From the NCBI GenBank assembly GCA_963710895.1, contig CAVQCB010000017.1, positions 2,516-66,515 of the forward strand: DNA of 64,000 bases, written 5' to 3'. The stretch's first letter is position 1; every line of letters begins with the position of its first letter. This DNA comes from an uncultured Actinomycetota bacterium. GTDB lineage: Bacteria; Actinomycetota; Actinomycetes; Propionibacteriales; Nocardioidaceae. Of this stretch, positions 26,286-42,199 are shown piece after piece. The position numbers and the translations under genes are program-made. A model generated the notes under the pieces. The model was given only the letters and a program-made list of their open reading frames with translations. It did not search any database and was not told the DNA's origin.

Positions 26286-27620
26286 AGCGATGCGTCGGGA
26301 GATCCAGGGGCTGCGTGCGGTGGCTGTGCTTCTGGTGGTGTTGTTCCATCTGTGGCCGAATCGGGTGCCGGGTGGGTATGTCGGGGTTGATGTCTTCTTT
26401 GTGATCTCGGGGTTCTTGATCACTTCCTTGGTGGTGCGGGAGGTGGATCGGACGGGGTCGGTGAGCCTGGCGCGGTTCTGGGCTCGGCGGGTGCGGCGGT
26501 TGTTGCCGGCGGCGTACCTGGTGTTGGTGGTCTCCGGGGTGGCGGTGCTGGTGTGGGTGCCGCGGTTGGTGTGGCAGCAGTTCTTCGGGGAGATCTTGGC
26601 TGCGGGTCTGTATGTGGAGAACTGGACGTTGGCGGTCAACTCGGTGGACTACCTGGCTGCGGAGAACGCGGCTTCGCCGGCGCAGCACTACTGGACGCTC
26701 TCGGCCGAGGAGCAGTTCTACGTGGTGTGGCCGTTGCTGGTGCTGGTGGGGGTGTGGCTGGCGCGGCGCCGGGCGGTCTCGCGGGGGGTTCGCGCTGCTG
26801 GCGGGGCTGCTGGTGGGGCTGCTGGTGGGGGGTCTCGTGGTGCGGTGCTGGGGGTGCTGGTGGTCGCGGTGGTGGCCTCGTTGGGGTACTCGTTGTGGAT
26901 CACCGCGACGAATCCGGCGTGGGCCTACTTCGTGACGCCGGCGCGGGCGTGGGAGTTCGGGTCGGGGGCGTTGTTGGCGTTCGCTCCGGGGGTCGCGGGC
27001 TGGTTGGGGCTCGGGGTGCGGGCGGTGCTGGGCTGGGTGGGCCTGGGGGTGTTGGTGGGGTGTGCGCTGGTCTTCGATGCGGGCACGCCGATGCCGGGGA
27101 CGGCTGCGGTGGTGGTGGTCGTGGCCTCGGCGGTGTTGATCTGGGTGGAGGCGCCGGGGGTGTGGTGGTCCTCCTCGCGGTTGTTGGTGCTGGGCCCGGC
27201 CCGGTATCTGGGGGACATCTCCTACTCGGTGTATCTGTGGCACTGGCCGTTGATCATCGTGTTGCCCTATGTGACCGATCATGGGTTGACCACGGTGGAC
27301 AAGGTCTCGATCCTGATGGCCACGGTGGGGCTCTCGGCGTTGACCAAGCGGTTCGTGGAGGATCCGGTGCGGGCTGCGCGGCGCTTCGGGTTGGCGCGGC
27401 CGCGGGTGACGTTCGCCTGGGCCGTGGTGGGGGCGGTGGTGTTGACGGTGGTGTGTGTGGTGCCGCGCCAGGAGGTGGCCGACCAGGTCGCGCAGACCGA
27501 GCGGGTGGCGGCACGGTTGGCGGCGCAGCGGCCGCCGTGCTTCGGTGCCGCGGCGCGCGACCCCGAGGCCAGCGGCTGTCCCAACCCCGACCTCGCGAAC
27601 ACCCTGGTCCCCAGCCCCGA
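26286..27620 (+). repeat. 1335-bp direct repeat, copy A (partner 28398-29732)
   Basis: Identical where read by eye; shadow ORFs on both strands recur identically at offset 2112. Confidence 0.9.
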
Positions 27621-28386
27621 GGCGGTCAAGGAGGACTGGCCGCAGTACGAGCGCTGCGTGGAGCCGCTCCTCGCGGACCCGTTGCGGCCCTGCCACTTCG
27701 GTGACCCGAAGGCCGACGTGCCGCACGTCGCGGTGATCGGGGACTCCCACGCCCGGGTGATGATGACCATGGTCGAGGAGATGGTGAAGGCCGGACAGCT
27801 CACCGCCGACATGTTCGTCATCGGCGGCTGCCCGTGGTCCACGCAGCCGATGAGCACCAAGTCCCCCGTCGGGCTGCGGTGCACCGAGTTCCGCAAGAAG
27901 CTCTTCCCGCTGCTCGACCGCACGGCCACGCGCTACGACGCGATGCTGACCACCAACCGCCTCACGATCATGAAGGGCTCCCACCGGGCGCGGGTCCGAG
28001 GGCTGTCGCAGGCCTGGAGCCGGGTGACCAAGCAGGGGGTGCCGGTGATGGTCCTGCGCGACAACCCGCAGCACAAGAACCCCGACCTGAACCCGCAGCT
28101 GTGCCTGGCGCAGGTCTCGATCCAGGAGGCCAACCAGAAGTGCGCGCTGGACCGCCACGAACGGCTCGAGCAGTGGTTCGACGCGCTGTCCATCGCGGCC
28201 CGGCGGACCCCGGGCGCCGAGGTGATCGACCTGACCCCGTTCTACTGCGACGAGAAGACGTGCCCGGTGGTGATCGGCGGCGTGAACGTCTACCTCGACA
28301 ACAACCACCTCTCGGTCACCTACGCACGCACGCTGGCGCCGTACCTCTACAAGGCGATGGTCGCCCACGGGATCCTGCACCCCTGA
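26290..28386 (+). CDS. AT3-SGNH fused O-acyltransferase, copy 1 (OafA/OatA-like)
   Basis: REIQGLRAVAV, GYVGVDVFFVISGFLI, HYWTLSAEEQFY, SYSVYLWHWP; SGNH GDSH and DNNH; leaderless after TAGCAT. Confidence 0.95.
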   Translation: MRREIQGLRAVAVLLVVLFHLWPNRVPGGYVGVDVFFVISGFLITSLVVREVDRTGSVSLARFWARRVRRLLPAAYLVLVVSGVAVLVWVPRLVWQQFFGEILAAGLYVENWTLAVNSVDYLAAENAASPAQHYWTLSAEEQFYVVWPLLVLVGVWLARRRAVSRGVRAAGGAAGGAAGGGSRGAVLGVLVVAVVASLGYSLWITATNPAWAYFVTPARAWEFGSGALLAFAPGVAGWLGLGVRAVLGWVGLGVLVGCALVFDAGTPMPGTAAVVVVVASAVLIWVEAPGVWWSSSRLLVLGPARYLGDISYSVYLWHWPLIIVLPYVTDHGLTTVDKVSILMATVGLSALTKRFVEDPVRAARRFGLARPRVTFAWAVVGAVVLTVVCVVPRQEVADQVAQTERVAARLAAQRPPCFGAAARDPEASGCPNPDLANTLVPSPEAVKEDWPQYERCVEPLLADPLRPCHFGDPKADVPHVAVIGDSHARVMMTMVEEMVKAGQLTADMFVIGGCPWSTQPMSTKSPVGLRCTEFRKKLFPLLDRTATRYDAMLTTNRLTIMKGSHRARVRGLSQAWSRVTKQGVPVMVLRDNPQHKNPDLNPQLCLAQVSIQEANQKCALDRHERLEQWFDALSIAARRTPGAEVIDLTPFYCDEKTCPVVIGGVNVYLDNNHLSVTYARTLAPYLYKAMVAHGILHP

Positions 28387-28397
28387 GTGGTGCGCTC

Positions 28398-29732
28398 AGC
28401 GATGCGTCGGGAGATCCAGGGGCTGCGTGCGGTGGCTGTGCTTCTGGTGGTGTTGTTCCATCTGTGGCCGAATCGGGTGCCGGGTGGGTATGTCGGGGTT
28501 GATGTCTTCTTTGTGATCTCGGGGTTCTTGATCACTTCCTTGGTGGTGCGGGAGGTGGATCGGACGGGGTCGGTGAGCCTGGCGCGGTTCTGGGCTCGGC
28601 GGGTGCGGCGGTTGTTGCCGGCGGCGTACCTGGTGTTGGTGGTCTCCGGGGTGGCGGTGCTGGTGTGGGTGCCGCGGTTGGTGTGGCAGCAGTTCTTCGG
28701 GGAGATCTTGGCTGCGGGTCTGTATGTGGAGAACTGGACGTTGGCGGTCAACTCGGTGGACTACCTGGCTGCGGAGAACGCGGCTTCGCCGGCGCAGCAC
28801 TACTGGACGCTCTCGGCCGAGGAGCAGTTCTACGTGGTGTGGCCGTTGCTGGTGCTGGTGGGGGTGTGGCTGGCGCGGCGCCGGGCGGTCTCGCGGGGGG
28901 TTCGCGCTGCTGGCGGGGCTGCTGGTGGGGCTGCTGGTGGGGGGTCTCGTGGTGCGGTGCTGGGGGTGCTGGTGGTCGCGGTGGTGGCCTCGTTGGGGTA
29001 CTCGTTGTGGATCACCGCGACGAATCCGGCGTGGGCCTACTTCGTGACGCCGGCGCGGGCGTGGGAGTTCGGGTCGGGGGCGTTGTTGGCGTTCGCTCCG
29101 GGGGTCGCGGGCTGGTTGGGGCTCGGGGTGCGGGCGGTGCTGGGCTGGGTGGGCCTGGGGGTGTTGGTGGGGTGTGCGCTGGTCTTCGATGCGGGCACGC
29201 CGATGCCGGGGACGGCTGCGGTGGTGGTGGTCGTGGCCTCGGCGGTGTTGATCTGGGTGGAGGCGCCGGGGGTGTGGTGGTCCTCCTCGCGGTTGTTGGT
29301 GCTGGGCCCGGCCCGGTATCTGGGGGACATCTCCTACTCGGTGTATCTGTGGCACTGGCCGTTGATCATCGTGTTGCCCTATGTGACCGATCATGGGTTG
29401 ACCACGGTGGACAAGGTCTCGATCCTGATGGCCACGGTGGGGCTCTCGGCGTTGACCAAGCGGTTCGTGGAGGATCCGGTGCGGGCTGCGCGGCGCTTCG
29501 GGTTGGCGCGGCCGCGGGTGACGTTCGCCTGGGCCGTGGTGGGGGCGGTGGTGTTGACGGTGGTGTGTGTGGTGCCGCGCCAGGAGGTGGCCGACCAGGT
29601 CGCGCAGACCGAGCGGGTGGCGGCACGGTTGGCGGCGCAGCGGCCGCCGTGCTTCGGTGCCGCGGCGCGCGACCCCGAGGCCAGCGGCTGTCCCAACCCC
29701 GACCTCGCGAACACCCTGGTCCCCAGCCCCGA
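28398..29732 (+). repeat. 1335-bp direct repeat, copy B
   Basis: As copy A; identity ends at ...CCCAGCCCCGA. Confidence 0.9.
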
Positions 29733-30504
29733 CGCCGCGGCCACCGGCTACCCGCACTACCCGGAGTGCAGGGAGGAGCTGCAGGGCCATCCGCTGCGAC
29801 CGTGCCGGTTCGGCACGCCCCGGCCCGGCGTCCCGCACGTCGCCGTCGTCGGGGACTCCCACGCCCGGCTGCTGATGACCATGGTCGAGGAGCTGGTGAA
29901 GGCCGGACAGGTCACCGCCGACCTGCTGGTGCACGAGGGGTGCGCCTGGAGCAGCGAGCCACCGCCGGTGCACAACGGGGTGGGCATCGACTGCGGGAAG
30001 TACCGCCGAGAGCTGGTGCCGCTCCTGCAGCGGACGGCGACCGACTACGACGCCGTCCTCACCAGCGCGAGGATCACCGCGATCCAGATGCGCGGCCGCC
30101 CGGGACCGCACGTCGACGGGCTCGTCGACGCCTGGAGCCGGGTGACCCGCCAAGGGGTGCCGGTGGGCGTGCTCCGAGACAACCCGCAGGGGGAGGACCC
30201 CGAGGTCAACCCCAACCTCTGCCTGGCGAAGGTCTCGGTCCAGGAGGCCAACCAGAAGTGCGCCCTGAACCGGCACGACCACCTCGACGCCTGGTTCGAC
30301 GTGCTCTCCGCGGCGGCGCGGCGCACCCCGGGCGCCGAGGTGATCGACCTGACCCCGTTCTACTGCGACGAGAAGACGTGCCCGGTGGTGATCGGCGGCG
30401 TGGACGTCTACCTCGACCACAACCACCTGACCGCGACCTACGCGCGCACGCTGGCGCCGTACCTCTACCAGGCGCTGCGCCGCACGGGCGTGCTCACCGG
30501 GTGA
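28402..30504 (+). CDS. AT3-SGNH fused O-acyltransferase, copy 2
   Basis: Same AT3 domain; divergent SGNH with GDSH and DHNH; ATG 15 nt after the copy 1 stop. Confidence 0.95.
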   Translation: MRREIQGLRAVAVLLVVLFHLWPNRVPGGYVGVDVFFVISGFLITSLVVREVDRTGSVSLARFWARRVRRLLPAAYLVLVVSGVAVLVWVPRLVWQQFFGEILAAGLYVENWTLAVNSVDYLAAENAASPAQHYWTLSAEEQFYVVWPLLVLVGVWLARRRAVSRGVRAAGGAAGGAAGGGSRGAVLGVLVVAVVASLGYSLWITATNPAWAYFVTPARAWEFGSGALLAFAPGVAGWLGLGVRAVLGWVGLGVLVGCALVFDAGTPMPGTAAVVVVVASAVLIWVEAPGVWWSSSRLLVLGPARYLGDISYSVYLWHWPLIIVLPYVTDHGLTTVDKVSILMATVGLSALTKRFVEDPVRAARRFGLARPRVTFAWAVVGAVVLTVVCVVPRQEVADQVAQTERVAARLAAQRPPCFGAAARDPEASGCPNPDLANTLVPSPDAAATGYPHYPECREELQGHPLRPCRFGTPRPGVPHVAVVGDSHARLLMTMVEELVKAGQVTADLLVHEGCAWSSEPPPVHNGVGIDCGKYRRELVPLLQRTATDYDAVLTSARITAIQMRGRPGPHVDGLVDAWSRVTRQGVPVGVLRDNPQGEDPEVNPNLCLAKVSVQEANQKCALNRHDHLDAWFDVLSAAARRTPGAEVIDLTPFYCDEKTCPVVIGGVDVYLDHNHLTATYARTLAPYLYQALRRTGVLTG

Positions 30505-33934: not shown

Positions 33935-34687
33935 TCAGGCGTCTTGCTTGTCGACGGCGAGGGCGGCGGCGCCGACGATGCCGGCGGTGTTGCGCAAGGT
34001 CGCGGAGATGATCTCGGTGTCGATGTCGATCAGCGGGATGAACTCGCCGCCGTGCTTGCTCACGCCGCCGCCGACGACGATGAGGTCGGGCGAGAAGAGC
34101 CTCTCCAGGGTCCGGTAGTAGGTGGTCAGCCGCTCGGCCCACTGTGCCCAGGAGAGGCCCTCGTCCTTGCGGGCGGAGTTGGCGGCGCGGGTCTCCGCGT
34201 CGTGGCCGTCGATCTCGAGGTGGCCCAGCTCGGAGTTGGGCACCAGGACGCCGTCGTGGAGGATCGCCGAGCCGATGCCGGTGCCGAGGGTGGTGACGAT
34301 GACCAGGCCGGGGCGGCCGCGCGCCACGCCGTACCTCGCCTCGGCCAGGCCGGCCGCGTCGGCGTCGTTGATCAGGTGCACCTCGCGGTCGAGCCGGTCA
34401 CTGAGCAGGGCCTCGGCGTCGGTGCCGATCCAGCCCTTGTCGATGTTGGCGGCGGAGGCGACCACGCCGTTCTTGCGCACGACGCCGGGGACGGTCACAC
34501 CGACCGCGGAGTGGCTGTCCTCGAATCGCTCCAGGAGCTTCGCCATCACCTCGGCCACCGCCTTCGGCGTCGACTTCTCGGGGGTGTCGAGGCGCTCGCG
34601 CTCGGCGGAGAACTCACCCGTGGTCAGGTCGACGGGAGCGGCCTTGATGCCGCTGCCCCCGAAGTCGATGCCGATCGGGTCTGCCAT
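33935..34687 (-). CDS. ppgK: Polyphosphate glucokinase (ROK family)
   Basis: [39 protein letters not shown]. Confidence 0.92.
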
Positions 34688-34714
34688 GGGCGCCAACCTA
34701 GCGTCGCGGGCCGC

Positions 34715-34769
34715 GGCTGGGCAGTGGCTGGGCCGTGGCTGGGCAGTGGTTGGGCAGTGGTCGGGCAGC
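34715..34769. repeat. 5 x 11-bp tandem repeat in a divergent promoter region
   Basis: Unit GG(C/T)(T/C)GGGC(A/C)G(T/C). Confidence 0.8.
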
Positions 34770-34798
34770 GCCGGCGGCGCGGCCACTAGCATCCGGGG

Positions 34799-35575
34799 GT
34801 GCGACGTGTGGCTGTGGTGCTGGTGGCGCTGTTCCTGGTGAACCTGCCCCTGGCCCACCAGACCTGGACCGAGCGCGAGCTGGCGCGCTCCGGCCGCGAG
34901 GTGGAGGCCACCGTGCTGGACGCCCGGCGACCGGCGGAGGACTACCTCGTGGACTACCGGCTGCCGCGCTCGGTGGACCCGGCCCACACCCGGTTCTCGG
35001 CGCGGGTCGATCGCACCACCTACGAGCAGGCCCGCGAGACCGGTGTCCTGGCCGTCCGGGTGGTGCCGGGCAAGCCCAACACCAACCGACCGCTGGGCAG
35101 CGTGCAGGGGCACCTGCTGACCGTGACCGCCGTGCTGGGTGACGCCGCGCTGCTCCTGGTCGGCGTCTTGTGGTGGCGCCGGTGGCGCCGGCGCGCCGGC
35201 CACCAGGTCGTGGACGTGGAGGGGGACGAGGTGACCCTCGAGTCCTCCCGCGGACGCCTGCGGGTGGCCGTGCCCACCGGGTGGGCCCGGGGCGTGCACC
35301 CCGGTGACCGGGTGCGCGGGTCGCTGCACCTGGTCACCACGGAGGAGGTGCTGCCGGTCGCCGCGCCCGAGGGCTACGGCTGGGAGCAGGTGCGCGGCGC
35401 GGAGTACGTCGTGCGGGGCCGCGTCCTCGACGCGCGGGCCGGGGTGGTGGTCCTCGAGGTCGGGGACGCCTCACCGCTGCGCGTCGAGACCGGTGGCAGC
35501 CGGATCCGGGCGGACATCCGCGACCCGACCCGGGTCCACGGGACGCTCTGCTTCACGCCGTACGGCCGGGGGTGA
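34799..35575 (+). CDS. Hypothetical membrane protein
   Basis: Two TM segments, beta-rich domains; leaderless GTG 6 nt after TAGCAT. Confidence 0.7.
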
Positions 35576-35613
35576 GCGGACCCCGGAGCCGCCCCTTTAC
35601 ATTCAGCGACCCC

Positions 35614-35671
35614 TTGTCAAATTCCGAGGGATGCCCTAGCGTGCTTTACATCTGGTCTTCAGATGTAAAGC
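35614..35671 (+). promoter_or_regulatory. alkB promoter and operator
   Basis: TTGTCA-N17-TAGCGT followed immediately by IR GCTTTACATCTG-N5-CAGATGTAAAGC. Confidence 0.75.
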
Positions 35672-35684
35672 AAAGGAGCGATCC

Positions 35685-37127
35685 ATGGCCAACGCGACCG
35701 TCCCGCAGGGCTCCAGCAAGACCTGGACCGACAAGAAGCGCTACCTGTGGCTGATCGGCCTGGTGGTGCCGTCGCTCGCCTTCATCGCCTTCACCATGTT
35801 CCGCCTCACCGGCTGGGACGTGTGGCTGTGGATCGGGCCGATCGTCATCCTGGTCGTGGTGCCGGCGATCGACCTGATCGCCGGGCTGGACCGGTCCAAC
35901 CCGCCCGACGACGCGATCGAGCGGCTCGAGCAGGACCGCTACTACCGATGGATCACCTACTTGTTCCTGCCGATCCAGTACGTCGGCTTCCTGGGCGCCT
36001 TCGTCTGGATCGCGCGTCCGGAGTGGCTCGGTCTGGCCGAGCTCACCACGATCGACAAGGTCGGCCTGGCCGTCTCGATCGGGGCCATCGGCGGCATCGG
36101 CATCAACACCGCCCACGAGCTGGGGCACAAGAAGGAGAGCAACGAGCGGTGGCTGTCCAAGATCGCCCTCGCGCAGAGCTTCTACGGCCACTTCTACATC
36201 GAGCACAACCGCGGCCACCACGTCCGCGTCGCCACCCCCGAGGACCCGGCCAGCAGCCGGCTGGGTGAGAACTTCTACCAGTTCTGGCCGCGCACCGTCG
36301 CGGGCTCCCTGCGCAGCGCCTGGCGGCTGGAGAAGCGGCGCTACGCCCGCAAGGGCAAGCACCCGTTCCGGATCGGCAACGACGTGCTGAACGCGTGGCT
36401 GATGTCCGCCGTGCTCTGGGGCGGCCTGATGGTCGTGCTCGGCGCGGGGATCCTGCCCTACCTCGTCGTGCAGGCGATCGTCGGCTTCTCGCTGCTCGAG
36501 GTCGTCAACTACATGGAGCACTACGGGATGCTGCGGCAGAAGGTCGGCACCGGTGAGCGCCAGCGCTACGAGCGGGTCGACCCCAGCCACAGCTGGAACT
36601 CCAACAACATCGCGACCAACGTGCTGCTCTACCACCTGCAGCGGCACAGCGACCACCACGCGAACCCCACCCGCCGCTACCAGTCGCTGCGCGACTACGA
36701 GGAGTCCCCCGTGCTCCCGACCGGGTACGCCGGGATGATCGTGCTGGCCATCGTGCCGGCGATCTGGCGCCGGGTGATGGACCCCCGCGTGCTGGCGCAC
36801 TTCGACGGCGACGTGACCCGCGCCAACATCTCGCCTCGCAAGCGGGACCGGATCATCGCGGCGTACGGCGCCACCGCCACCGCCCCGCCCGCGCACCGGG
36901 GACGGGAGTCCGGGTCGACCACGGCGCCGGCCGGTGAGCCGGCCGAGGTGATGGCCGCCCGCTGCCCCGGCTGCGGCTACACCTACGAGGTCGAGCGGGG
37001 CGACGAGCACGAGGGCTTCGCCGCCGGCACCGCGTGGGCCGACGTGCCCGACTCGTGGTGCTGCCCCGACTGCGGGGTGCGCGAGAAGGTCGACTTCGTG
37101 CCGGTGCAGAGCGAGCTGGCCTCATGA
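35685..37127 (+). CDS. alkB: Alkane 1-monooxygenase fused to C-terminal rubredoxin
   Basis: His boxes HELGHK, EHNRGHH, NYMEHYG, LQRHSDHHA; C-terminal CPGC...CPDCGVR. Confidence 0.95.
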   Translation: MANATVPQGSSKTWTDKKRYLWLIGLVVPSLAFIAFTMFRLTGWDVWLWIGPIVILVVVPAIDLIAGLDRSNPPDDAIERLEQDRYYRWITYLFLPIQYVGFLGAFVWIARPEWLGLAELTTIDKVGLAVSIGAIGGIGINTAHELGHKKESNERWLSKIALAQSFYGHFYIEHNRGHHVRVATPEDPASSRLGENFYQFWPRTVAGSLRSAWRLEKRRYARKGKHPFRIGNDVLNAWLMSAVLWGGLMVVLGAGILPYLVVQAIVGFSLLEVVNYMEHYGMLRQKVGTGERQRYERVDPSHSWNSNNIATNVLLYHLQRHSDHHANPTRRYQSLRDYEESPVLPTGYAGMIVLAIVPAIWRRVMDPRVLAHFDGDVTRANISPRKRDRIIAAYGATATAPPAHRGRESGSTTAPAGEPAEVMAARCPGCGYTYEVERGDEHEGFAAGTAWADVPDSWCCPDCGVREKVDFVPVQSELAS

Positions 37128-37315
37128 GGATCGAGGTGGACCGCGACCGGTGCGAGGGCCTCGGGATGTGCGAGGCGATGGCGCACGAGTACTTCGAGGT
37201 CGACGACGACGACACGATGACGGTGCTCGAGGAGTCCCCGCCGGAGTCGGACCGGTCGACGGTGCACGCCGCCGTCGAGGCGTGCCCGGTGCTCGCGCTG
37301 AGCCTGGTGGACTGA
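37124..37315 (+). CDS. Small [3Fe-4S]-type ferredoxin
   Basis: MRIEVDRDRCEGLGMC...EACPVLALSL; ATGA overlap with alkB. Confidence 0.88.
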   Translation: MRIEVDRDRCEGLGMCEAMAHEYFEVDDDDTMTVLEESPPESDRSTVHAAVEACPVLALSLVD

Positions 37316-37361
37316 CGCCGCGATGTCGGTGCCCACGGGGGTGGTCAATAGGCTGGCGGAC

Positions 37362-38000
37362 ATGAGTCCCGCCGCAGCCCGGGCCGCCGGGGGGCCCGCC
37401 GGAGCGCCCGCCGGGGCCGGCACCCCGACGAGGAGCCCCGCGGCCACCCACCGCGACCGCCTGCTGGTGGCCGCGGCCCGGTTCACCGCCGAGCACGGCT
37501 GGGGTGCGCTCACGATGGGCAAGCTCGCCGACCTGGTCGGTGTCAGCCGGCAGACGGTCTACAACGAGATCGGCGGGAAGCCGCAGCTGGCCGAGGCCAT
37601 GGTGATGCGCGAGCTCGACCTGTTCCTCGACCACGTCGACTCGGCGTTCACCGACAACCCCGGCGACCTGGTGGGGGCGATCGAGGCGGCGGCCTTCCGC
37701 GTCCTCGAGCTGGCCCGCACCGACCCGCTGCTGCACGCCATCTTGAGCAGCTCGCAGGGGGCCGACAGCGAGCTGCTCCCGTTGCTGACCACGAACTCCG
37801 AGGGGCTCCTCGAGGCGGCGGGCCAGATGATCCGCACCCACGTGAGGCACTACGACGTCCCTCTGGAGGCGCACCGGCTCGAGGTGCTGATCGACATGGT
37901 GGTGCGCCTGGTGCTCAGCCACGTCATGCAGCCGGCGGGCACGCCGGCCGAGACCGCGGCCACCGTGGCCTGGATGGCGCGGCGGGTGCTCGGCGGCTGA
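37362..38000 (+). CDS. TetR family regulator (AlkX/AlkU-like)
   Basis: LTMGKLADLVGVSRQTVYNEIG; leaderless ATG 7 nt after TAGGCT. Confidence 0.88.
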   Translation: MSPAAARAAGGPAGAPAGAGTPTRSPAATHRDRLLVAAARFTAEHGWGALTMGKLADLVGVSRQTVYNEIGGKPQLAEAMVMRELDLFLDHVDSAFTDNPGDLVGAIEAAAFRVLELARTDPLLHAILSSSQGADSELLPLLTTNSEGLLEAAGQMIRTHVRHYDVPLEAHRLEVLIDMVVRLVLSHVMQPAGTPAETAATVAWMARRVLGG

Positions 38001-38174: not shown

Positions 38175-39241
<1,067 letters not shown>

Positions 39242-39245
<4 letters not shown>

Positions 39246-40003
39246 GCTTCGTGCGAGAGTCGATGATCGTCTTCCGGCGCCAGGTGCGGATGAACCTGCG
39301 CAACCCCGCCTGGGTGTTCATCGGGGTGATGCAGCCGGTGCTCTACCTGGTGCTGTTCGGCCCGCTGCTCAAGCCGATCGTGGACACCTTCCCCGGCGGT
39401 GCGGACAACGCCTACACCTTCCTGGTGCCCGGGCTGCTGGTGCAGCTGGGCATGTTCGGTGCCTTCTTCGCCGGCTTCGGCCTGATCGGGGAGTGGCGCG
39501 AGGGCGTGATCGAGGCCGAGCGGGTCACTCCGGCCAACCGCACCGCCCTGCTCGTCGGCCGCCTGACCCGCGACGTGGCCCAGCTGTTCGTGCAGGCGGT
39601 GATCCTGGTCTCGCTCGGCTGGGTGATGGGGATGCGGGCCTCGGCCTCGGGCGTGGTGATCGGGGTCGCCCTGACCCTTCTCGTCGGTGGGGCCTGCGCC
39701 GCCGCCTCCAACGCCCTGGCCCTGACGACCAAGAGCGAGGACGTGATGGCGCCGGTGATCAACATGGTGATGATGCCGGTGCTGCTCCTCTCCGGGATCC
39801 TGCTGCCGATGACGCTGGGTCCCGGCTGGCTCCAGCGGGTGAGCGACTTCATGCCGTTCCGCTGGATCGTCGACGGCGTGCGCGACACCTTCGGTGGCGA
39901 GCTGGACACCAGCGGGTTGCTGTGGGGCACCACGTGGGCGGTGGTGCTCTTCGGGCTCGCCCTGTGGTGGGGCACGGCAGTCTTCCGCAAGGAGAACGCC
40001 TGA
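39242..40003 (+). CDS. ABC-2 type permease (DrrB-like)
   Basis: About 6 TM; LLLSGILLP; GTGA overlap. Confidence 0.9.
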
Positions 40004-40022
40004 GCAGTGCGCCCCGGGGTGC

Positions 40023-41051
40023 TCAGGGCAGCCGCAGGGTCAGCACCGGGGTCCGGTCGCTGCCCGGGGCGCTGACGGCCCGGGACACGCACGTGCACAG
40101 CTGGCCGCCGGCCTCCTGCTGGCGGCGGCTGAAGAACACGTCGCGGTGGTCGACCGCGCCCTCCACGTCCTCGACCTCGACCCGGCACAGTCCGCACTCG
40201 CCCTTGCGGCAGTCATACATCAGCTGCGCCCCGGTCTCGGCCAGGGTCTCGGCCAGCGCCTCCAGCATCGTGTGCCGGGAGTCGACCAGGGTCTCGATGC
40301 CCAGCTGCGGGATCCGCACCACGAAGTCCTGCGGGTCGAACCAGCCGCTGTTGCCGAAGGTCTCGTAGCGCAGGTTGGCCGGGGAGAGCTCGGTGGCCTC
40401 CCAGGCGCGGCGTACGCCGTCCATCAGCCGGATCGGGCCGCACATGTAGAGCTCGGTCGCCCCGCCCGCGGGGTCGGCGGCGATCGAGCCCACCAGGGCC
40501 TCGACGTCCAGGGGCGTGCCCTCGTCGTCGACGTGCACGCACACCCGGTCCCCGTGCAGGTCCTCGAGCTGGTCGAGGTAGGCCATCAGCTCGCGGCTGC
40601 GGCCCACGTAGACCAGCCGGTAGTCGGCCTGCACCGAGCGCAGCACCCGCGCGGCCTCCACGATCGCGGTGATCCCGATCCCGCCGGCGAGGAGCACGTA
40701 GCGGGGGGCGCCGATGCGCAGCGGGAAGTTCTGCAGCGGCTGCGTGGTCTCCAGGGCGTCGCCCACGGCGAGCCCGTGCAGGTACGCCGACCCGCCGCGC
40801 GAGTCGCGCACCCGGAGGACGGTGATGCTCAGCCGGCTTCCGTCCGCGTTGGACTCCACCACGCTGTAGGAGCGGGTGTCGGTGCGCCGGTCGCCGGGTG
40901 GGCCGATCGGCACCCGGACGTCGAGGTGCGTGCCCGGTGCGGCCCGCCGGCTGGGCGGTCGCTCGATGGTGACCCGCCGCGCGGTGCGGGTGAGCGGCAC
41001 CGACTCCACCACCCGGCCAGCTCGCCAGTCGGGCTGCCCGTGCGTGCTCAC
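40023..41051 (-). CDS. vanB: PDR/VanB-family reductase
   Basis: RSYS, GGIGIT, YMCGP, CRKGECGLC...C [2Fe-2S]. Confidence 0.9.
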   Translation of the reverse strand: MSTHGQPDWRAGRVVESVPLTRTARRVTIERPPSRRAAPGTHLDVRVPIGPPGDRRTDTRSYSVVESNADGSRLSITVLRVRDSRGGSAYLHGLAVGDALETTQPLQNFPLRIGAPRYVLLAGGIGITAIVEAARVLRSVQADYRLVYVGRSRELMAYLDQLEDLHGDRVCVHVDDEGTPLDVEALVGSIAADPAGGATELYMCGPIRLMDGVRRAWEATELSPANLRYETFGNSGWFDPQDFVVRIPQLGIETLVDSRHTMLEALAETLAETGAQLMYDCRKGECGLCRVEVEDVEGAVDHRDVFFSRRQQEAGGQLCTCVSRAVSAPGSDRTPVLTLRLP

Positions 41052-42199
41052 GACCTGCTCAACGCCTCACCGGAGGACCGCTCGGGGCCGAGCGCGCCCG
41101 CGGCGCCGGCGCCGCCGCGCCCCTCGGCCTCCAGCATCTCCTCGAGGATGCGGCGCACCCACATCCCGCCGGCGTCGATGCTCAGGCTGTAGAACTCGTG
41201 CTCGGGGTTCGCGTCGATCGCGGCCTGCTGCGCGGTGAGCATCTCCTCGTCCTCGGCGAAGACACCGCGCACGCCCTCGCGCAGCTGGGTGGTGATCAGC
41301 TGGCTGTCGAGCCGGTAGTTGCGCATGAACGCCCAGAAGTAGTGGCAGCTGCGCTCGGTCTCCGGGGTGATCGTGTTCATCACGTAGCCGTTCACGCCCT
41401 GAGAGCGGTCCCCCTCCGGTGCCCCGGTCCCGGCGGGGGCCACGCCCACGTCGATGCAGATCGTGGCGGGTGCGTAGTAGTGGATGATCTGCCAGCGGTC
41501 GACCCGGCCCTCGAAGTCGGGGAACCTGTCGCGCATGTTCTTCGCCCAGAACGGTGGCGGCTCCACGTCGTAGATCCAGCGCTCGACGGTGACGCTGCCG
41601 TCCTCCTCGCGCCGGGTGTGGAAGTCCGACCCGCTCAGCTCGGCCTGGCCGAGGCTGGCCCCGTGCACGAACTCCTCGTGGGTGAGGTCCATCAGGTTGT
41701 CCAGCACCAGCTGGTAGTTGCACGGCGCCTCGATGGTCAGGCCGTCGCCGGCCCACTCCTCGGAGTCCATCTGGTGCATGTCCGGGATCAGGTCCGGGTC
41801 GGCGAGCGTCATGTCGCCGGGCCAGACCCACAGGTAGCGGTGGCGCTCGACCACGGGGTAGGAGGACACCATCGCGCTGGGGTTCACCGTCTCCTGGGCC
41901 GGCATGTGGGTGCACCGGCCGGCGGAGTTGTACTCCAGCCCGTGGTAGGGGCACTGCACCCCCTCGTCGCCGACCAGCTTGCCCATCGAGAGCGGGGCGA
42001 GCCGGTGCCAGCAGGCGTCGGCCAGGGCGACCGGACGGCCGTCCGCGGTGCGGTAGAGCGCCATCGGCAGGTCGGCCACGGTCCGGGCGAGGAGACCCTG
42101 GCGGTTCACCTCGTGGTCCCAGGCCACGGCGTACCAGGCGTTGCGGGGGTGCGGGAAGATCTTCGCGGTCACGCTGCCGCTGGGCTTGAGGGTCATCAC
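41048..42199 (-). CDS. vanA: Rieske vanillate O-demethylase oxygenase subunit
   Basis: CWH...CPYH Rieske motif, DNLMDLTHEEFVH; closely resembles actinobacterial VanA as recalled. Confidence 0.88.
   Translation of the reverse strand: MMTLKPSGSVTAKIFPHPRNAWYAVAWDHEVNRQGLLARTVADLPMALYRTADGRPVALADACWHRLAPLSMGKLVGDEGVQCPYHGLEYNSAGRCTHMPAQETVNPSAMVSSYPVVERHRYLWVWPGDMTLADPDLIPDMHQMDSEEWAGDGLTIEAPCNYQLVLDNLMDLTHEEFVHGASLGQAELSGSDFHTRREEDGSVTVERWIYDVEPPPFWAKNMRDRFPDFEGRVDRWQIIHYYAPATICIDVGVAPAGTGAPEGDRSQGVNGYVMNTITPETERSCHYFWAFMRNYRLDSQLITTQLREGVRGVFAEDEEMLTAQQAAIDANPEHEFYSLSIDAGGMWVRRILEEMLEAEGRGGAGAAGALGPERSSGEALSRS

Follow-up and report, generated by a model that had tools for sequence, protein, structure and literature searches.

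A predicted 3Fe-4S ferredoxin in the second-rubredoxin slot of actinobacterial AlkB-rubredoxin operons as a candidate electron feed of the fused alkane hydroxylase

For the alkane hydroxylase AlkB, four arrangements of electron partners are described in the literature searched: the AlkG/AlkT pair, single rubredoxins (Rds), Rd fusions, and fusions of ferredoxin (Fd) and ferredoxin reductase (FdR) to AlkB (PMC8918992, PMC4021335). As far as the available text of the sources goes (PMC3604635, PMC8918992), the actinobacterial AlkB-Rd fusions, viz., Dietzia AlkW1 and those of Nocardioides sp. CF8 and Prauserella rugosa, have a single C-terminal Rd with the signature C(P/S)DCGVR, a downstream AlkX-like TetR gene and no reductase gene in the cluster, which is described as alkW1-alkX with nothing in between. 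Here we analyze a stretch of 64,000 nt (the window, to which all coordinates refer) of contig CAVQCB010000017.1 from an uncultured actinobacterium of the family Nocardioidaceae, in which a gene for AlkB fused to an Rd (alkB~rd) shares these three features and yet is separated from the TetR gene by a coupled gene for a P450-type Fd, predicted to be of the 3Fe-4S type, with a dedicated reductase gene coming next in relatives. From the organization of these operons we propose, with a probability of roughly 0.6, that the fused enzyme draws its soluble electron supply from the Fd(-FdR) module in place of RubA2-RubB. The open literature searched, a scope outside which Nie 2011, van Beilen 2002, Smits 2002 and Williams 2021 fall, holds no description of a separate 3Fe-4S Fd in alkB~rd operons.

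Two further systems frame the comparison. The operon alkB-rubA1-rubA2-rubB-alkU of Rhodococcus and M. tuberculosis (Rv3252c-Rv3249c), of which L096-L104 are examples within the family, resembles the window in gene order, in the terminal TetR gene and in the type of the Rd at the first position; it differs in that in the window RubA1 is fused to the enzyme, RubA2 gives way to an Fd, and RubB gives way to a reductase of another clade in relatives and is absent from the window itself. The second, FtAlkBG of the gammaproteobacterium Fontimonas thermophila (8f6t), is a fusion of the same build that oxidizes dodecane with only P. oleovorans AlkT and NADH, and whose structure shows the Rd docked 13.6 Å from Fe1 (PMC10113152). 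The window protein matches it end to end (518 bits, residues 7-472), with the same Rd insertion (CPDCAVRDKVDF versus CPDCGVREKVDF) and conserved acidic and basic contacts; however, FtAlkBG was reconstituted with an AlkT-type rubredoxin reductase, whereas the window genome lacks such a reductase and has an alkB-coupled Fd gene. The elements of the window operon are as follows:

35642..35672, no strand assigned: perfect 13-nt inverted repeat TGCTTTACATCTG-N5-CAGATGTAAAGCA, 12 nt upstream of the alkB start
35685..36830, + strand: AlkB hydroxylase, covering residues 1 to about 382 of the fusion; alkane 1-monooxygenase of the integral-membrane, di-iron type, complete in its His boxes
36831..36956, + strand: linker joining AlkB to Rd, low in complexity and about 40 residues long, poorly aligned to 8f6t
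36957..37127, + strand: fused Rd domain (PF00301), CPGCG ... CPDCGVREKVDF, with the Arg insertion and both Gly of the CXXCG motifs kept
37124..37315, + strand: 63-aa single-cluster Fd, CEGLGMC...CP, with three Cys, predicted 3Fe-4S type, net charge -13, ATGA-coupled to alkB
37323..38000, + strand: TetR-family regulator (TetR_N and TetR_C_35 in Pfam), in the AlkX/AlkU position of actinobacterial alkB operons

The alkB~rd gene is an intact ORF (35685-37127, + strand) coding for 480 aa, with Pfam matches to FA_desaturase/AlkB (PF00487, residues 128-351, E 6e-34) and Rubredoxin (PF00301, residues 426-471, E 5e-15). Its AlkB part has the complete set of His boxes (HELGHK at 144, EHNRGHH at 173, NYMEHYG at 275 and LQRHSDHH at 318), its Rd displays CPGC at 427 and CPDC at 460 followed by GVREKVDF, and its linker corresponds to a segment that is disordered in FtAlkBG (PMC10113152). 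The closest relatives are from Nocardioides and allied genera, and the window is uniform in composition (about 70-75% G+C). Similarity of ~55% to FtAlkBG, and 60-80% identity to AlkB-Rd fusions of alkane-degrading genera, suggest that the protein hydroxylates n-alkanes. An ORF immediately upstream (34799-35575, + strand) has no Pfam match, and the overlapping minus-strand ROK-family ORF (33935-35329) is the likelier gene.

The alkB stop codon (TGA, 37125-37127) overlaps the Fd start codon at 37124 (...GCC TCA TGA GG..., i.e., an ATGA junction), the Fd and TetR genes are 7 nt apart, and no terminator-like site was found inside the three-gene block, making a single alkB~rd-fdx-tetR operon the best explanation of the arrangement. 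An earlier reading of this DNA from its letters alone (hereafter the sequence-only reading) had called the gene after alkB a coupled P450-type Fd, and this is borne out by the overlap and by the matches of the product to Fer4_15/Fer4_13 (PF13459, E 2e-12), although the start it gave, 37034, merely marks the longest ORF, the real start being the coupled ATG. Among solved proteins it is best matched by the M. tuberculosis-type ferredoxin 8amp (E 1.6e-12), and a CYP51-Fd fusion is a further relative. The motif CxxXxxC...CP, with three Cys and a non-Cys Leu at the X position, predicts a 3Fe-4S cluster. The Fds of related operons are conserved as CEGLGMCEAMA...ACPVLAL, and 50 of the 63 have Leu at the variable position. 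In phylogenetic trees they group apart from the paralogs in the window genome (support of 77, which is weak, on long branches); the tree is otherwise poorly resolved, with the Fds accompanied by FdR largely clustering together.

To place this operon among its relatives we compiled 155 loci, comprising the 80 nearest relatives from named genomes and all Rd-bearing alkB loci in 151 sampled Nocardioidaceae genomes (the unpublished G015, G023 and G029 enter the family tallies only). The architectures recovered are:

alkB~Rd-TetR: 43 loci
alkB~Rd-Fd-TetR, the window type: 37 loci
alkB-Rd-TetR: 21 loci
alkB~Rd-Fd-FdR(-TetR): 17 loci
alkB~Rd alone: 12 loci
alkB-Rd-Rd(-reductase)(-TetR): 11 loci
alkB~Rd-Fd: 5 loci
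unfused alkB-Rd-Fd forms: 4 loci
alkB-Rd-reductase-TetR: 3 loci

An Fd gene follows alkB in 63 of the 155 loci, in genera including Nocardioides, Marmoricola, Flexivirga, Amycolatopsis, Haloechinothrix and Pseudonocardia, with a median distance of -1 nt from the alkB stop to the Fd start, an overlap in 35 loci and a gap of at most 30 nt in 58. The Fd occupies the slot that belongs to the AlkG2-type RubA2 in related operons, and the two exclude each other: against the 63 Fd loci stand 11 with two Rds, and none has both. The suggestion of the sequence-only reading that the Fd stands in place of an AlkG2-type Rd thus finds its counterpart across the survey. Moreover, the orthologous group is almost exclusively found beside alkB: among the 151 family genomes, 26 of the 28 Fd matches of at least 54% identity adjoin an alkB Rd. 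Within the genus, 10 of 13 genomes retain the Fd, and three genomes with an Fd-less operon, along with one lacking alkB, have no ortholog of it elsewhere but only ~45% paralogs. In net charge the window Fd (-13) and the Fd family (mean -10) come close to RubA2 (-10.7) rather than to the fused Rd (-5.7), which fits a RubA2-like role and is compatible with the Fd reducing either the Rd or AlkB directly. Ten ENA metagenome proteins (P0004-P0013) that combine PF00487, PF00301 and PF13459 appeared to be AlkB-Rd-Fd triple fusions; we rejected them as frameshifted assembly artefacts because P0005, P0006 and P0009 have obviously out-of-frame stretches and because a single frame joining Rd to Fd, or Fd to FdR, occurs at none of the 63 genome loci.

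The case for the Fd as a functional carrier with its own reductase is made most strongly by the gene that follows it. A protein with Pyr_redox_2 and Reductase_C domains comes after the Fd in 19 loci, and the 16 full-length examples form a clade with 100% support; long branches set it apart from the 10 reductases encoded after RubA2 or after a single Rd. In the loci surveyed this FdR clade is confined to operons with the Fd. The solved protein nearest to it is 6tuk, a Thermobifida ferredoxin reductase partnering a 3Fe-4S ferredoxin; the RubB-like group is instead nearest to BphA4 and putidaredoxin reductase. The separate clade therefore indicates that carrier and reductase were exchanged as a pair. 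A decaying version of the module is seen in Amycolatopsis sp. cmx-11-51 (L030 5389-5520), where a truncated Fd and a short reductase remnant follow alkB~Rd. Both Fd and FdR belong to the same families as the components of class I actinobacterial P450 chains (FdR plus 3Fe-4S Fdx; 8amp, 6tuk), but 56 of the 63 loci lack a P450 in the operon and the terminal oxidase encoded there is AlkB~Rd.

The window genome (G000; 3.7 Mb, 99.94% complete) has one alkB, and a profile search with PF00301 recovered from it the fused domain as its single match, i.e., no second Rd and no AlkG2-type Rd anywhere in the genome, the very search that the sequence-only reading had called for. That reading had further noted the absence of a second Rd and of a reductase from the window. 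For the Rd, and for reductases of the AlkT/RubB type, this extends to the whole genome, in which PF14759 (Reductase_C) has no match and tblastn with two alkB-operon reductases returned only partial matches of ~30% as candidates for an AlkT/RubB/FdR-type enzyme; as a statement on reductases in general it does not stand, since the window encodes at 40023-41051 (- strand) an FNR-type reductase that has a 2Fe-2S domain and forms a pair with a Rieske oxygenase. We also considered the Fd as a compensation for a missing AlkT-type reductase and rejected this, as most family genomes have at least one Reductase_C protein regardless of the Fd; Reductase_C is absent only from G000 and G118, both of which have the Fd, a sample of two that is uninformative.

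The fused Rd (CPDCGVREKVDF) is of the AlkG1 type in the feature that defines this type, namely an Arg insertion downstream of the second CXXC. Its spacer has 6 residues versus 5 in the AlkG2 types, and the identification of a CPDCGVR-ending AlkG1-type domain made from the sequence alone holds in the tree as well. The domain aligns ungapped both to 2m4y (CPDCSVREKVDF), the solved protein that it matches best (75.8 bits), and to the FtAlkBG Rd (CPDCAVRDKVDF, 8f6t residues about 420-466), whereas a one-residue gap is needed against the AlkG2 types 1s24, M. tuberculosis RubB (7a9a/2kn9) and 2v3b. The same division runs through the 155 loci: every position-1 Rd has the 6-residue spacer (GVR in 148, SVR, GVC or GVL in the others), and every position-2 Rd has GAA or GAS and the 5-residue spacer. 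Position-2 Rds make up one side of a branch with 99% support. The OCT-like plasmid prototypes (L174 2187-3159) show CPDCAVRDK(I/L)DF in AlkF and the AlkG N-domain and CPDCGATKEDY in the AlkG C-domain; when they are included (51 columns, with low resolution within groups), the position-2 Rds and the AlkG C-domain fall on one side by a single change, with AlkF, AlkG-N and all position-1 Rds on the other. All fused Rds are said to carry C(P/S)DCGVR in Nie 2011 as cited in PMC3604635; in our set of 114 we find GVR in 111 and GVC in 3. The fused domain departs from the AlkG1 description, in which the Gly is usually replaced, in keeping both CXXCG Gly residues (CPGCG and CPDCG), CPGCG being present in 78 of the 114. 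This sets the fused cluster apart from the free AlkG1 types and fits the "third cluster" of the literature (PMC3604635, PMC8918992), here seen as a subgroup on the AlkG1 side.

The survey does not bear out, for this family, the premise that actinobacterial alkB operons usually carry an AlkG1 plus an AlkG2: most alkB-bearing Nocardioidaceae genomes in the 151-genome sample have one Rd domain, of the AlkG1 kind, which contradicts the generalization that all alkane degraders carry an AlkG2-type Rd. At L145, L162 and L166 alkB is accompanied by a single free AlkG1-type Rd, by a RubB-like reductase and by TetR, without an AlkG2-type Rd. The companion premise, that AlkG1-type Rds are unable to support AlkB, fails for the fused forms because FtAlkBG is active with the same insertion and Dietzia AlkW1 is reported to require its fused Rd (PMC13609444). 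As FtAlkBG is active with AlkT alone, the fused Rd is not dead and the Fd is therefore not required as compensation for it. The reported failure of the P. rugosa fused Rd to complement in trans (PMC8918992) is silent on how such a domain acts in cis. The Arg insertion of the FtAlkBG Rd (CPDCAVRDKVDF), as in the OCT-type AlkF and AlkG N-domain, goes unremarked in PMC10113152 and in the other literature examined.

These data bear on whether the Fd might bypass the Rd altogether, donating directly to the AlkB di-iron site at its basic face as an AlkG2 Rd would, with the tethered AlkG1-type Rd being structural, gating or an effector instead of an electron carrier. The Fd has the negative charge of the position-2 Rds and sits in their slot, it and the fused Rd are both acidic, and AlkG1-type Rds are reported to be unable to replace AlkG in the van Beilen complementation, as cited in PMC3604635 and PMC8918992. 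We nevertheless consider this unlikely, given the placement of the FtAlkBG Rd next to Fe1 with turnover on AlkT alone, the requirement of AlkW1 for its Rd, and the half of the fused AlkBs that have neither an Fd nor a second Rd. In addition, the docking interface is conserved in the window protein: the four acidic Rd contact residues of FtAlkBG are acidic here too, and the six basic AlkB docking residues (PMC10113152), five Arg and one Lys, are all retained if the numbering of the paper and that of the 8f6t chain differ by 3, as inferred from the position of His141.

A non-canonical chain involving the Fd, as first suggested from the sequence alone, is the best reading. We propose that the tethered Rd would act as the proximal one-electron donor, docking on the Arg-rich face of AlkB as in FtAlkBG, and that the acidic soluble Fd would be the diffusible carrier from an NAD(P)H-dependent flavoprotein reductase to the enzyme, doing the job of RubA2 in the two-rubredoxin operons. 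It would most likely reduce the tethered Rd; direct donation at the same face of AlkB is less likely. Ancestrally the cassette probably comprised alkB~rd-fdx-fdR-tetR, with fdR lost in the window genome; as no AlkT/RubB/FdR-type reductase is found there, a housekeeping reductase would have to feed the Fd. Such exchanges of partner have precedents: RubB can support P450s, so that carriers are interchangeable in principle (bioRxiv 10.1101/2020.10.27.356691), and a ferredoxin/FNR chain drives AlkB in vitro (PMC4021335). The ferredoxin-ferredoxin reductase-AlkB fusions of Leptospira, Limnobacter and Polaromonas (PMC4021335, PMC8918992) likewise indicate that AlkB can be driven by a chain of the ferredoxin type, as we propose for the window, but these combine an N-terminal Fd domain with an FNR-type reductase and have no Rd, whereas the window encodes a separate 3Fe-4S-type Fd and keeps the Rd on the enzyme.

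Several observations weigh against this route. A tight Fd-Rd complex is not favored by the charges, both the Fd (-13) and the Rd domain (about -6) being acidic, and fused Rds from Fd-bearing and Fd-less operons show no difference in charge or in any alignment column. Pairwise identities of Fd and AlkB correlate weakly (Mantel r 0.12, with 77 of 999 permutations as high), and the 2 of the 28 ortholog-grade Fds that lie away from alkB are standalone genes in unrelated contexts. Mapped on the AlkB tree, the presence of the Fd entails 24 changes, at least 9 of them forced by well-supported branches, and an Fd and a second Rd are both missing in 54 of its 101 fused AlkBs; AlkB therefore works without the Fd in many lineages. 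One Nocardioides subclade has a CYP107/CYP125-like P450 (not CYP153-like) ahead of alkB~Rd-Fd-TetR, and the Fd there could therefore serve the P450. Finally, the reductase we can name as a candidate for feeding the operon Fd is a guess: a Cys-free thioredoxin-reductase-like flavoprotein of 330 aa on contig C6 (L171 3823-4815; TRX_reduct 142 bits against a cut-off of 343), encoded about 0.5 kb upstream of the closest Fd paralog (48% identical, of the CxxNxxC type; L171 3823-5545), with which it may form a housekeeping ferredoxin reductase/ferredoxin pair.

Gained or lost repeatedly and missing beside half of the fused enzymes, the Fd is facultative and not universal for fused AlkBs. These same facts raise the alternative that it survives from an ancestral Fd-FdR module as a dispensable remnant or back-up, with little or no part in AlkB turnover, the fused Rd being reduced directly by a flavoprotein reductase. 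The 79 of 155 loci with neither Fd nor second Rd, the decay seen in L030, the sufficiency of a reductase alone for FtAlkBG (PMC10113152) and the lack of any adaptation of the Rd to the presence of an Fd are all in line with this. Yet the Fd is strongly conserved where present and still translationally coupled, it persists in most genomes of the genus, and the window genome has kept it despite the loss of fdR and the lack of an AlkT-type reductase, which indicates selection, not decay; we therefore regard the remnant as a doubtful account of the window operon, albeit one with more in its favor than direct donation to AlkB.

It is very improbable, in our estimation, that the Fd is a P450 redox partner merely riding in the alkB operon. 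The 3Fe-4S type is the one used by actinobacterial P450s, the solved relatives (8amp and the CYP51-Fd fusion) point the same way, and the genome has about 9 P450 genes. Further, in the Nocardioides subclade noted above the P450 lies directly upstream of alkB (L084, L090, L093 and L095, with the P450 stop overlapping the alkB start in L095) or 1.4-2.2 kb upstream (L070 and L080). However, no P450 gene lies on the contig of the window, P450s are absent from the flanks of 56 of the 63 Fd loci, nearly all orthologs adjoin alkB, the alkB-less genome of the genus lacks this Fd, and the window genome encodes four further Fer4_15 Fds, of which at least one comes immediately after a P450.

As to the control of the operon, we predict by analogy with Dietzia AlkX (PMC8784404) that the inverted repeat before alkB is probably the operator of the TetR encoded at its end, which would repress the operon from this site. 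Regulators of the AlkX/AlkU type combine TetR_N and a specific C-terminal domain with a gene at the 3' end of the alkB operon and a palindromic operator at the alkB promoter; the window regulator has the domains and the position, and the conserved 13-nt repeat is a candidate for such an operator. An identical site is present upstream of alkB in the same-genus loci L132, L141 and L158, and an inverted-repeat half-site, CTTTACAT, is found at 35595-35602. A TetR gene lies downstream of alkB in most related loci. The alkB~Rd-Fd(-FdR) cassettes without one (L064, L071, L076 and L148) adjoin a PucR-type regulator (GGDEF_2 plus HTH_30), and the Fd thus stays in the cassette under either regulator.

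Elsewhere in the window, a DrrA/DrrB-type ABC-2 exporter pair (+ strand) lies downstream of the TetR gene, with a VanA-like Rieske oxygenase and its FNR/2Fe-2S reductase on the opposite strand (38175-42199). Two tandem paralogous AT3 plus SGNH acyltransferase genes (26290-30504; 698 and 705 aa) are located in a stretch whose GC skew (0.19) and AT skew (-0.3) are unusually strong.

The alkB~rd-fdx(-fdR) cassette offers a concrete, clonable candidate chain for the actinobacterial AlkB-Rd fusions, bearing on two questions, viz., which electron donors serve AlkB outside Pseudomonas and by what native reductase route these fusions are supplied. It is relevant both to the reconstitution of long-chain alkane hydroxylases in heterologous hosts and to the reading of environmental alkB genes as functional units. 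The Nocardioidaceae that possess AlkG1 alone, together with the supposedly inactivating Arg in the active FtAlkBG, weaken the textbook division between a functional AlkG2 and a non-functional AlkG1, against a background in which a 2022 review called the role of AlkG1-like Rds a puzzle (PMC8918992). As a tentative generalization, for which the odds are less than even, AlkG1-type Rds, free or fused, may all be AlkB-docked proximal donors, with a second slot filled interchangeably by an AlkG2 Rd plus RubB or by a 3Fe-4S Fd plus FdR, giving in the latter case a relay from NAD(P)H through reductase, Fd and tethered Rd to the di-iron site. If true, this would provide the function for AlkG1/AlkF-type Rds that has been missing since 2002 and would identify the electron source of the actinobacterial AlkB-Rd fusions.

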